From an uncultured delta proteobacterium (GTDB taxonomy: Bacteria > Myxococcota > Myxococcia > Myxococcales > Anaeromyxobacteraceae), in NCBI GenBank assembly GCA_963828255.1, contig CAWHDZ010000040.1, forward strand, positions 128,001 to 192,000: a DNA stretch of 64,000 bases, in the 5' to 3' direction. Made by a program: the position numbers and the translations under genes. This document shows, piece by piece, positions 35,990-40,645 of this stretch. The notes under the pieces are model-generated. The model was given only the letters and a program-made list of their open reading frames with translations. It was not told the DNA's origin and searched no databases. Position 1 is the stretch's first letter. Each line of letters starts with the position of its first letter.

Positions 35990-38900
35990 CTAGTGGGGAA
36001 CCGCCGTCGCGGCGACCAGGTCGAGGACCACGCCGCCCGAGGCGGCGTCGACGCGGAAGCCGAAGCGGGCCAGGACCTCGGGCTGGAACCAGCCGGTCTC
36101 GAGCACCTGCACCCCGCGGGCGCGCTGCCGCCGGGAGAGCTCGCGGATGATGCCGTCGGCGACCCCGGTCCCGCGGTGCTTGCGGTTCACCACGATCTTC
36201 TCCATGTGGGTCCGCTCCGGCGTGACCTGCCGGTAGAACACCCCGCCGATGACCGCGTCGTGGGAGTCCACCGCGATGAGGTGCCGGTGCTCGGGCTCGA
36301 AGGTCACCTCCAGGCTCGACTCCCGGAAGAGCTGGAGCAGGCGCGCCACCTCCCTGGGCGAGCGGGCGGCGCGCACGGAGTAGCGCTCCCCCTTCTGGTC
36401 GGTGTGGACCACCACCACCTCGGCCGTCAGGTGGTCGCCGCGCTCCAGCGAGATGAGCGAGGTCTCGTCCCCCGGCCGCAGGTGGCGGAAGGTCATCCGG
36501 GCCAGGAAGTAGTCCTCCCGGGCGTCCGGGCGCACCGCCTCCCGGAGGGTGGCCAGGTGCTCGCGCAGGTCCAGGCCGCGGAAGGGGAGCGACCGGGCGC
36601 GGGCCATGAGCCGGTCGAGCGAGGCGGCGAGCGGCTCCCGGGCGTCGGCGAAGACCGTCCGCCGGAAGAACCGGATGCGCGTGTCGGGCCAGTCCCGCTC
36701 CACCTCCCCGAGCTGGTAGGTGGTCCAGAGCTCGCCGAGCATGGTGCCCTGCGCCTCCGAGGTGGCGTTGGGGTTGACCGCCCGCCAGCGCCGGAACCGC
36801 TCGATGGCGAAGTGGACCTGGCGCGAGGTGAAGCCGTGGGCGTCGATCTGCGAGAGGAAGGCCTGCGCCGCCTCGGCGCGGGGGCTGGGCGAGAGGGAGG
36901 AGAGAGCGGTCCGCCCCCGCTCCAGTCCGAGCGCCTCCACGACGGCGGAGAAGCGCAGCGTGGGTCCCAGCCCGCCGCGAAGGTCCTGGTAGAGGGCCTC
37001 GGTGGGGGTGATGAAGGCGGTCTCGAAGCGGTCCAGGACGTCGTCGAGCCGGTCCACGGCGCCGCGGTCGGAGATGGAGACCAGCCGGGCGCCCGTCTGG
37101 TAGTCGTGGGAGGGCACGATGAAGGCCGCCGGGGACGGATCGCGCAGCGCCACGCGGCGGCCGGTGCGATCCCAGAAGCCCACGTGGGCGGCCAGCGCGT
37201 TCCAGGCCACGAAGGGCCACTGGTTGAGCAGCCGCCGGGTCTCGTCCTTCTTGACCAGGCGCGCCAGTTGCTGCTCGACGTTCTCGCCCGGGATGAACTC
37301 CTCGGTGTAGATCCCCCAGTCCGGGTGGTAGCTGCCGAAGGCCTCGACGAGCGGCGGCGGCGCGCCGGACGAGAGGAGCCAGAGCACCTCGTCCCGCAGC
37401 TCGACCGGCGGCATGGTCTCGGCGTGGTTCACCGCGAAGTCGAAGGTCTCCCGTCCCCGGGTGGTGAGGGAGAAGCGGTAGACCGACTTCCCGAGCCTCC
37501 GCCCCAGCAGGGTCACGGTGGCCCCGCCGGGCGCGACGTCTGCGAGCGAGATGATGGATCCCTTGCCCAGCACGAAGACCGAGCTGCGGACGAAGGTGGA
37601 CTCGGAGATGGAGCGCAGGAGCAGGTCGGTGGTGCGCGGGGGCAGGGCGCCCTCGAAGCGGACCACGTCACGCCAGGTGTACTCCTCCCCGGTGGCGGGG
37701 TCGAAGGCCAGCCGGAGGTTGGGCCCGAGCCAGTGCTGGAAGCCGCGCCGGTTCCGGTCGTACTCCTCGCCGGCCCGCGCGGAGAGGATCGGGTCCGGGT
37801 GGAAGGTGAGCCGCGCCAGCGGGACCCGCACCCGCGCGTACCAGGGCGGGTGGGAGATGGAGTAGGCGACGGCGAGGCGCATGGCGCCGGCCAGCAGGCG
37901 GCGCTCGGAGGCGTCCTGGTCCGGGTCGAGCGCGCGCGGAGACTGGAGCGCCGCCAGGAGTTCCTCGACCTGGGCCTCGGAGAGCCCCTTCTCGCCGAAG
38001 GTGGCGAGGTCCTCCTCCCGGAGGGCCTGCGGCCCGAGCCGGTCGAGGAAGTTGCGCAGGGTGTCCACGGTCCGGGCCGGCTCCTCCGACGGGAGCAGGC
38101 TGCGGAAGGCGCGCCGGCGGACCTCCTCCTCGGGCGAGTCGGCGCAGCGCCGGAGGAGGCCGCGTGCCAGCGGGACGAGCTCGCGCCGCCCGGACTCGAG
38201 CACCCGCTCGAGGTGGGCCATCGCACGTCGGGCCTCGGGGCGCTCGGCGCGGAGCAGCTCGCCGGCGGCGTGCACCGACTCGACGGAGGGCTCGTCGCGC
38301 CCCACCGCCTCGATGAGGGACGGGAGCCGTTCCGGGTCGGGGGACTCCCAGACCCGGGCGTCCAGGCGGACCTCGCCCGTTCCCTTGGGGCGGCGCACGG
38401 CCAGCGTTCGGAAGGCCTCCTCTCCCAGGAACCGGCGCAACCCCTCGTTGCCGAGCCACAGGGTGGGGTGGGCCAGCACCGCGCCGAGGTCGAGCACCCC
38501 GCCCTCCGGACGGTAGGCCAGGTCTCCCACCCGGAGCGAACCGGGCGCGCGCGGGTCGGCGCAGACGCGCAGGAAGGTCTTGCCGGCGCGCAGCTCCCCG
38601 CCGCGCAGCACCACGTCCTCGATGAGGACGCCCAGCTCGCGCAGCACCCAGTTCGGGATGCGCAGCCCGGCCCCGTCCACCGAGAGGGACAGCGCCCGGT
38701 GCTGGTACATCCCCTCGATGAGCGGCTTCCAGTTCTTCTCGACCACGTCCCGCTTGTAGGTGAGCTTGTGGGTCAGCTCCCCGTGCTCGACGTCGAGCGC
38801 GCGGTCGATGATGCGGAAGGCCACCACCCGCTCGAAGGGAGCCAGGAAGCGGTTGGCGGAGGCCACCAGCGAGGAGACGAGGTGCTGCATCTCCTCCGCG

Positions 38901-40645
38901 GAGAGCTTGCGCAGCTCGGGCCGCCCCTCGAAGTTGGGCCACACGAGCAGCGTGTTGTACTCGCGGTGATCCCCGACCAGGAAGGCCTGGGACAGGTCGT
39001 CGAAGTCGCGGAAGAGGTTCTCCACGCGCTGCGGGGCGATGGTCTGCCCGGCCCTGTTCTTGTAGATCTCCTTCTTCCTGCCGGTGATGCGGAAGTGCCC
39101 CTCGGGGTCGATGGAGACCAGGTCGCCGGTGTGGAACCAGCCCTCCGCGTCGTGGGCCTCCTGCTCGTCCCCCTCCGGGTGGAGGTAGCCGGGGCTCACG
39201 TAGGCGCCGCGGATGAGGAGCTCCCCGTCCTCGGCGCGGACGCACTCGATGCCCGGGAGCGGCTTGCCGATCGACCCGTCCACGTACTCCCCGGGCGGGG
39301 TCATGGTGATGCCGCCGGTGGCCTCGGTCATGCCGTAGCCGGAGCAGAGCTCGACGCCTGCCTTGTGGAAGGCCCGGAACACGGCGGGGTCGAGGTAGCC
39401 GGCGGCCGACAGGCCGTGGGCGAGCCGTCCGCCGGTGAGCGCGCGCAGCTGGCCCGCGGCGGCGTCGGGGTCATCGGGAGGGGCCTGGCGCTGCGCGGTC
39501 TCCTGGAGCTCCATCCACTTCTTGGGGACGGAGATGAAGACGGTGGGCTGGACGTTCTTGAAGTCCTCGGCCAGCGCGGCCTGGCCGGTGGAGCGCGCGA
39601 AGACGTAGGTCGCCCCCCACCAGAGCGACCCGGTCATCTCGAGGTACCTTCCGAACGTGTGGTAGAGCGGCAGGTAGGCGAGGAAGACGTCGCGCTCGTT
39701 GACGTGCGGCAGGGCGAAGCCGCGGCAGAGCCGCTTCGAGACGATGTTCAGGTGGTCGAAGACGATGCCCTTGGGGCGCCCGGTGGTGCCCGACGTGTAC
39801 ATCACCGTGGCCACGTCCCGGCTCTTCACCCGGGCGGCCCGGGCGGCGCGCTCGGCGTCGTCGAAGGCGCCCGCGCCCTGGGCGACGGCCTGCTCCAGAG
39901 AGAGCAGCCCGTGCCGGTCGGCGGCGGCGCGCGACACCACCACCACCTCCTTCAGGTCGGGGAGGCCGGGCAGGGAGGGGAGGACCTTGTCCACCTGCTC
40001 CTCGTCGGAGGCCACGAGGATGCGCGCCCTGGAGTGGCGGAGCATGTAGGCCACCTGCTCCGGGGTGGCGTTGGCGGGCAGCGGGAAGTCCACGATGCCG
40101 TTCGAAAGGCAGGCGATGTCGGTGAGGGCCGTCTCGAGCGAGTTCTCGGAGAGGATGGCGACCCGGGGATCGTCCTCCCCCGGGGCCAGCGCCAGCAGTC
40201 CCCGGGCGATGGAGCGGGTCCGGCGGGCCAGGTCGGTGACGGTCAGCTCGGCCCCCTCGGGGCCCAGGACCCGCATGGCCACCACCCGGGGGTCGGTCTC
40301 CTCCCGCGAGCGGAGCATGTCGCCGAAGGTGTGATCGGCCCGGTCCACGACCGGCACGAGCAGCCGGGTCCAGGGGTCGACGTCGTTCTCGTCCATCGCC
40401 TCGGTGAAGGCGCGACGGCGCGCGGAGTCGAGCAGGCCGAAGAGGGCGCGGCGCGAGGGCTCGCGGGTCTCCGGGGCGCCCAGGCAGGCGTCGAGCCGCG
40501 CCACGAGCTCCGCCACACCCCGAAGGTCGCCGGGTCTCGCGGCCAGCAGCGCACCCCGGGTCTCGTCGACCAGGATCCGGTCCGGGGTGGTTCCTGGTTT
40601 CCAGTTCGCAGCGAGGTCGGCGTAGGCGGGCGGGACGCGGTCCAT
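35990..40645 (-). CDS. Multidomain protein: long-chain acyl-CoA synthetase-like AMP-binding domain + helical region + kinase-like fold + C-terminal GNAT
   Basis: [42 protein letters not shown]-terminal [16 protein letters not shown]...RFGF. Confidence 0.85.

Follow-up and report, generated by a model that had tools for sequence, protein, structure and literature searches.

Which acid does a ligase activate when its own polypeptide ends in an acyltransferase, and where would the activated acyl group go? The question is raised by a fusion gene at positions 35990..40645 of a 64,000-nucleotide stretch of DNA, called the window below (contig CAWHDZ010000040.1, positions 128,001 to 192,000, assembly GCA_963828255.1), from an uncultured member of the Anaeromyxobacteraceae. 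A sequence-only reading of this gene proposed that a long-chain fatty acid is activated and then passed to an amine or a protein lysine within one chain. Over all the readings weighed here combined, the sequence evidence suggests that the substrate of the ligase is probably a tricarboxylate. The particular account that we favour, and hold tentatively, is that of a citrate- or homocitrate-CoA ligase feeding its own acyltransferase: the ligase would make the acyl-CoA, and the GNAT domain would move the acyl group to an amine. The role of the GNAT domain is the less settled part of this account.

The fusion gene and its parts, all on the minus strand, are as follows.

35990..40645, minus: whole fusion gene, 1551 amino acids (aa), in the order ligase, small beta domain, helical repeats, pseudokinase, helical domain, GNAT
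38699..40345, minus: ANL-superfamily adenylate-forming ligase of the ACSL/FadD15-like type, residues ~101-649 (Pfam AMP-binding and AMP-binding_C_3; motifs kept in 86 aligned members)
39722..39736, minus: signature K304-R305-x-x-R308, a predicted part of the acyl-pocket lining (86/86 at each residue, or 69/69 non-redundant)
38765..38767, minus: K627, probable catalytic lysine of motif A10, placed two positions ahead of the usual site T629 (Lys in 85/86)
38336..38698, minus: small beta-rich domain, residues ~650-770 (secondary structure of the model; conserved P664, W666, G707, Y711, N733)
37721..38335, minus: all-helical, HEAT-like repeat arm, residues ~771-975 (model helices, predicted local distance difference test (pLDDT) about 90)
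36869..37633, minus: protein-kinase-like fold, predicted pseudokinase, residues ~1005-1259 (Z 11.5 to 4ww5; Foldseek E 8e-5 to Rio2/PRPK)
36476..36868, minus: helical domain following the kinase-like fold, residues ~1260-1390 (model; conserved W1287, Y1310, R1323, T1330)
36005..36394, minus: GNAT acyltransferase domain, residues ~1418-1547 (Pfam over cut-off; Z 15.4; motif A)

The fusion is a single uninterrupted frame of 1551 codons (40645..35990), and its flanking DNA has a uniform GC content of 70-73%. Every motif quoted in the sequence-only reading, both helical segments included, is present in the translation; an 11-residue motif lies at residues 283-293, GYGMTE at 436-441, WFHTGD at 503-508, GRKKE at 523-527 and HRGTGVA at 1490-1496. 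Pfam places AMP-binding at residues 118-488 (E 5e-66), AMP-binding_C_3 at 533-649 and Acetyltransf_1 at 1448-1515 (24.1 bits against a cut-off of 20.7), and assigns no family between the last two. An assembly chimera or a split gene is ruled out: most of the 120 homologues listed are 1,540-1,590 aa long with the identical Pfam layout, and full-length relatives occur at 20-38% identity. Two database records, P0102 and P0016, resemble frameshifted copies rather than true variants of the fusion. The family alignment holds 86 proteins, or 69 once near duplicates are removed; against the query, residues 270-460 show a median identity of 0.52, and the C-terminal regions one of 0.22-0.30. That is, the adenylation motifs are kept while the remainder of the protein drifts. 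The proposed one-chain fusion of an intact-looking AMP-forming ligase with a GNAT domain, distinct from Pat/PatZ, therefore stands, and it is conserved.

The ligase half shows the A3 motif (P-loop), the A4 His, the A5 Glu, the A7 Asp and the A8 Arg, conserved over the 86 members with few exceptions (P0233, for example). The sequence-only reading called these long-chain acyl-CoA synthetase motifs. Judged from sequence, they mark an adenylating enzyme and do not show long-chain specificity; among the best 25 of 99 NCBIfam matches, no ligase model reached its cut-off for the fusion. The usual position of the A10 lysine, in the T-P-T-L-K register (T629), is Thr or Ser in 84 of the 86 members, so that the family departs from the canonical ACSL/FadD15-type register. 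Two residues ahead of this site K627 is a lysine in 85 of the 86, and the ligases of the source genome have K or R at the usual site.

The most distinctive feature of the ligase is found on the helix after the P-loop. Here K304, R305 and R308 are each invariant (86/86, or 69/69 non-redundant), and all three are absent from the four closest ligases of the source genome and from six other ligases checked. In a sequence alignment at low identity they fall on the tunnel helix of the Thermus thermophilus long-chain ligase (LC-FACS, 1ult), with K304 equivalent to H204 and R333 to W234 in the pairwise alignment; K304 also aligns to an Arg of luciferase. We take H204, W234 and the luciferase Arg to be substrate-pocket residues. 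Carboxylic acid reductases have R333 as well, and hence it is not a mark of this family. K304, R305 and R308 are thus predicted to line the acyl pocket, and three extra positive charges there would indicate a polyanionic acid rather than a fatty acid. The fatty-acid reading is accordingly doubtful.

A candidate source of such an acid lies immediately downstream of the fusion, and a further gene lies upstream.

34842..35981, minus: LysS-type homocitrate-synthase-like gene, 379 aa (TIGR02146 over cut-off; alignment to 3a9i)
40733..41473, plus: acyl-ACP thioesterase gene, divergent, start approximate (Pfam); a local neighbour only, outside the system

The synthase gene starts 8 nt past the stop of the fusion, whose stop codon is overlapped by an AGGAG ribosome-binding site. 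Its protein scores 444.5 bits against the LysS model TIGR02146 (cut-off 413.55), which makes it LysS-type in sequence, and among solved structures it is closest to T. thermophilus LysS (3a9i). It keeps H72, R133, T166 and the metal-binding histidines of LysS. Asp92 and Glu193 of the Thermus enzyme, which we take to be lysine-binding residues, are replaced by Gly97 and Gly196, each a glycine in 83 of 84 copies. The nearest known enzymes are the LysS homocitrate synthases of T. thermophilus and S. pombe and Re-citrate synthase; the two glycines set the protein apart from the Thermus enzyme.

In homocitrate synthase, lysine competes with 2-oxoglutarate, as PMC8276798 describes. Re-citrate synthases frequently carry a homocitrate synthase annotation, according to PMC12016533, and citrate is therefore a possible product of this synthase too.

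The two genes are tightly coupled, and the synthase, which the sequence-only reading of the fusion did not mention, is the one partner that is conserved. Counting loci that contain the C-terminus of the fusion plus 400 nt beyond (of 80 metagenome loci, 11 had too little sequence and were left out), the synthase lies directly downstream in 25/25 genome loci and in 68/69 metagenome loci, L115 being the exception. The fusion and the synthase are duplicated jointly in two genomes (G230 and G243), other neighbours vary by genus, and none of the neighbours seen to be conserved at the compared loci is a carrier-protein gene. Fragments of the locus or of its relatives occur in four metatranscriptome assemblies, and one 86%-identical contig spans the fusion-synthase junction, although such contigs prove neither transcription nor an operon. 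In one genome, G269, the genes upstream of the fusion are an ATP-citrate-lyase-like pair. The same genome carries several GNAT-end copies and a truncated synthase start amid RHS/YD-repeat genes and transposases (L053, L054, L055, L141, L142), and its intact synthase and intact fusion are on different contigs.

A homocitrate synthase would ordinarily suggest lysine biosynthesis, a role that is rejected for the source genome. Lysine is served there by the diaminopimelate (DAP) route (dapB and lysA are present), and no later steps of the aminoadipate pathway turned up in this genome: it has no LysX over cut-off, a single Iso_dh gene (near leucine genes) and no extra aconitase. The synthase thus has neither the acidic lysine-binding residues nor the downstream aminoadipate genes that go with a lysine-pathway homocitrate synthase. 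The reading favoured here would explain why DAP-route bacteria carry a 'homocitrate synthase' at all.

How widely is the system distributed? Query residues 650-1551 find a match in 41 of 301 genomes of the phylum, namely the source genome, 39/39 others of its family (Anaeromyxobacteraceae), 1/8 of family f4 and 0/115 of family f2. A profile search recovers the fusion gene from 65 of the 67 other genomes of the family and misses it in two that are 79% and 89% complete. It is therefore a near-universal and mostly single-copy gene of the Anaeromyxobacteraceae, with A. dehalogenans, A. soli and A. oryzisoli among its named cultured hosts. Among 50%-identity representatives there are 401 matches at E <= 0.001, and 66 of the 150 matches listed are at least 1470 aa long. 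All ten full-length distant members that were scanned have the same Pfam layout; the 20 shorter ones scanned show the GNAT domain only and may be contig-edge fragments. Where the 20 clusters looked up carried an organism name, it was Ignavibacteriales, Ignavibacteriaceae, Marinimicrobia or Bacteroidota; relatives of full length are named from Ignavibacteriales, Marinimicrobia and Bacteroidota. No match was found in the plasmids or viral contigs searched, and among 300 further genomes from the phylum of G325 no listed match extended into the C-terminal half (323 weaker ones were unlisted). Six genomes (G196, G586, G685, G640, G558 and G451) enter only the denominators of the 67-genome and 300-genome searches, G196 probably being in the set of 301 as well.

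The synthase occurs in 42 of the 301 phylum genomes, as compared with 41 for the fusion, and the additional genome, G105, is informative. It is 98% complete, its synthase is unlinked, and it encodes a stand-alone 572-aa ligase (L155:8531-10249) that carries both K-R-x-x-R and the displaced lysine; a search at E 0.1 did not find the kinase-GNAT half there. In the tree this ligase clusters with the fusions of Myxococcota (support 1.0), nested inside the family, which suggests that the kinase-GNAT half has been lost. Since G105 keeps the ligase and the synthase, the synthase would seem to track the ligase and not the GNAT domain, on the strength of a single genome. The same case weakens the claim that the acylation is self-contained. 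With the G105 synthase as a protein query, all the named matches listed were from Anaeromyxobacteraceae, which is uninformative on other phyla. The stand-alone ligase is in effect a natural truncation.

The part of the protein after the ligase is described here from predicted models. A first model of residues 650-1551, built from 35 sequences (pLDDT 84), begins with the small beta domain, continues through helical hairpins (about 771-975) and a mixed domain, and ends with a helical domain followed by the GNAT domain; a second, of residues 975-1402, used 70 more diverse sequences and reached a pLDDT of 95. Whole-model fold searches were dominated by GNAT matches. In the second model the mixed domain matches Bud32 (4ww5) at Z 11.5, with a root-mean-square deviation (rmsd) of 4.3 over 214 aligned residues, and APH and choline-kinase-type small-molecule kinase folds at Z 10-11. 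All 50 rows listed in the fold comparison are kinase-type folds, consistent with a bilobal protein-kinase-like (PKL) fold, and Foldseek puts Rio and PRPK on top. The kinase-like fold, which the sequence-only reading had named only in its title, is thereby borne out. An active kinase is unsupported, however, by the residues, whose positions we mapped by eye over the 69 non-redundant full-length members: no beta3 Lys is conserved at 1068-1076, the catalytic-loop Asp (Asp1169) is present in 17/69, the DFG-Asp position 1190 is Ser in 58/69, and the loop Asn, found in 52/69, is Ala in the query. The domain is best read as a pseudokinase.

The C-terminal domain matches the GNAT protein YhbS (4rs2) at Z 15.4, with an rmsd of 2.7 over 136 aligned residues of the predicted model, tied with many other GNATs; together with the Pfam score this agrees with its assignment as a GNAT. 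The model also matches S. lividans PatA (4u5y, 4nxy), PatZ (9it0), Rv0998 and GCN5 domains. Motif A (R/Q/K-x-x-G) is present in 50/69 members and Gly1494 in 62/69. A PDB sequence search with residues 650-1551 returned weak GCN5 matches only (E 0.4), one relative (P0206) has a weak, below-cut-off Pfam HEAT_2 match in the helical arm, and in the ESM Atlas the middle region finds unnamed clusters and DUF6206. Rows 7 and 8 of the Atlas results pair AMP-binding with GNAT (719 aa) and with an APH kinase (756 aa), mostly in Bacillota where recorded; with scores < 0.9 these are leads only.

How might these parts work together? The partner synthase would make a tricarboxylic acid: homocitrate, or citrate if it works as a Re-citrate synthase. 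With ATP this acid would be converted to an acyl-AMP and then to an acyl-CoA, K627 serving as the catalytic lysine and K304, R305 and R308 holding the free carboxylates. The GNAT domain would then transfer the acyl group from the thioester made by the ligase to an amine, most likely a protein lysine, while the helical arm and the pseudokinase may form a non-catalytic scaffold or an allosteric link. We prefer a tricarboxylate because the basic signature is invariant, the synthase gene is coupled to the fusion, the adenylation motifs are kept, the synthase has no lysine pathway to serve, and an ATP-citrate-lyase-like pair adjoins the fusion in G269. A bolder version, which we regard as unlikely, would make the protein an AMP-forming citrate/homocitrate-CoA ligase joined to the writer of an undescribed lysine citrylation or homocitrylation, a mark reporting tricarboxylate supply at the entry to the tricarboxylic acid (TCA) cycle; in the Anaeromyxobacteraceae, a LysS-type synthase insensitive to lysine would have been recruited to supply it exclusively.

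Several observations weigh against this account. The GNAT domain looks ordinary, and its nearest folds include acetyl-CoA users. The case of G105 implies that acyl transfer by the GNAT domain is not required everywhere. The assignment of the pocket depends on low-identity alignments, and a basic pocket would equally suit dicarboxylates, phosphates or sulfonates. The source genome encodes a separate Si-citrate synthase elsewhere. Lastly, the linkage counts come from close kin and represent few independent events.

In the main rival account, the ligase would activate or sense citrate or homocitrate for carbon metabolism, and the GNAT domain would be a Pat-like regulator that uses acetyl-CoA to acetylate K627, the synthase or other TCA-entry enzymes. 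The loss in G105, where ligase and synthase persist without a detectable kinase-GNAT half, fits such a regulator better than it fits the account we favour; the matches to PatA, Rv0998 and GCN5 domains agree with it, as do the ATP-citrate-lyase-like genes of G269. However, the fold matches are tied over many unrelated functions, the A10 lysine is out of its usual register, so that what we take to be the known Pat recognition site is altered, and the ligase retains its catalytic motifs, unlike the ligase-like domain of Pat. On balance we think this regulator rather unlikely. The proposal that a long-chain fatty acid is the substrate draws on the ACSL/FadD15-like type of the ligase (Pfam AMP-binding_C_3), on best NCBIfam and PDB sequence matches that include fatty acid-CoA ligases, and on the acyl-ACP thioesterase divergently adjacent in this window. 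Yet the thioesterase adjoins the fusion in only 6 of 58 other loci, which rules it out as a partner; the source genome already has four ordinary long-chain-type ligases; the three invariant basic residues align to predicted pocket positions; and the link to the synthase is left unexplained. We judge this proposal very improbable.

The synthase could instead begin a 2-oxoacid chain elongation (towards adipate or pimelate) or supply homocitrate to nitrogenase, in which case the ligase would activate the dicarboxylic acid of that route or would merely be co-transcribed. From the alignment, Gly97 and Gly196 would enlarge the 2-oxoacid site. The source genome has nifH and a nif cluster in which we see, by eye, no nifV-like gene; none of its five HMGL-like matches is on the nif contig, and the fusion-linked synthase is the sole homocitrate synthase candidate among the five. 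The synthase may therefore additionally serve nitrogenase. As the sole role this is ruled out: no more than 29 of 61 family genomes have a nifH over cut-off, and the gene pair is present without nifH in the closed genomes G060 and G166. In the part of PMC13161762 consulted, the nitrogenase cofactor alone is treated, and nothing is said of the fusion protein. A biotin precursor route could be suggested by the bioB, bioF-, bioA- and bioD-like genes of the source genome, which lacks a clear bioC (L170, L175 of G000), but it is weak, since bioC-like genes are present in 24 of the 41 genomes of the family; nor was a dedicated homoaconitase or homoisocitrate dehydrogenase found. We give chain elongation or nitrogenase supply little credence as the explanation of the pair. 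For the record, the nif cluster (L144, G000:C34:96000-115999) reads by eye as nifA, H, D, K, a fused EN, X, B and draT/draG-like genes.

The account of a tricarboxylate ligase that feeds its own GNAT domain can be set beside known systems. Pat/PatZ (YfiQ) and S. lividans PatA likewise fuse a large acyl-CoA-ligase-related part to a GNAT domain. Their ligase-related domain, which we take to be of the NDP-forming type and regulatory, differs from the AMP-forming ligase with conserved catalytic motifs found here, in which, moreover, a helical arm and a pseudokinase separate the ligase from the GNAT domain; at E 0.1 Pfam gives AMP-binding and no CoA_binding, ligase or ATP-grasp family. ACSL/FadD15-type synthetases have the same Pfam pair and the same motifs A3, A4, A5, A7 and A8 as the fusion, and so does the adenylating part of carboxylic acid reductase (CAR); the A4 form H-x-x-G-R is common to the fusion ligase and CAR. 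Compared with both, the fusion has the invariant K-R-x-x-R after the P-loop, the A10 lysine shifted by two and 900 extra residues, and its family forms a branch of its own in the tree, separate from six ordinary ligases. A reversal of the CAR order is seen, by eye, in a 969-aa protein of G499 (L156:8049-10958), with an N-terminal NAD-binding reductase-like part followed by a long-chain-type ligase.

Functional parallels are presumably offered by the activate-then-transfer systems E. coli Aas, mycobactin MbtM/MbtL/MbtK and fungal SidI/SidF. In these an AMP-forming ligase supplies an acyltransferase, MbtK and SidF being GNAT-type enzymes that act on a lysine or ornithine derivative. They handle fatty acids or mevalonate, divide the work between separate proteins or rely on a PlsC-type transferase, and lack a pseudokinase. 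By analogy, the fusion may work like Aas or MbtM/MbtK without being such a system. Citrate is known to be activated by ATP-citrate lyase and citryl-CoA synthetase (ADP-forming) and by NIS siderophore synthetases, whose folds are ATP-grasp and IucA/IucC; there too a tricarboxylic acid is activated, for cleavage or amide formation, as we propose for the fusion, in a different fold. No ANL-fold AMP-forming citrate-CoA ligase appeared among the papers listed by a search of Creative Commons-licensed PubMed Central (PMC) full texts and bioRxiv. The remark that no characterised enzyme has this architecture likewise holds for the same PMC full texts and bioRxiv, subscription journals and supplements being outside the search. 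If the account is correct, it would add a new substrate class for ANL ligases, a citryl- or homocitryl-CoA route outside ATP-citrate lyase, and a metabolic enzyme with an integral bacterial pseudokinase; a new acyl modification may be added as well. Its predictions are at the level of residues: K304, R305, R308 and K627 in the ligase, and G97 and G196 in the synthase.

A few further features were noted. In the window an HNH-domain gene (33706-34983, plus strand) stands between the synthase and ilvD; it is present in only 4 of 35 loci compared and resembles a mobile insert. A putrescine route, with agmatine-deiminase-like and carbon-nitrogen hydrolase genes (28056-30011, minus strand), is encoded 5 kb off, though in no more than the close relatives. 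These genes make it conceivable that the GNAT domain has a polyamine acceptor, but the link is not conserved. Within G000, contigs C6, C8 and C10, and likewise C2 and C3, hold gene copies with identical scores, which is consistent with 6.6% contamination or with assembly duplication.

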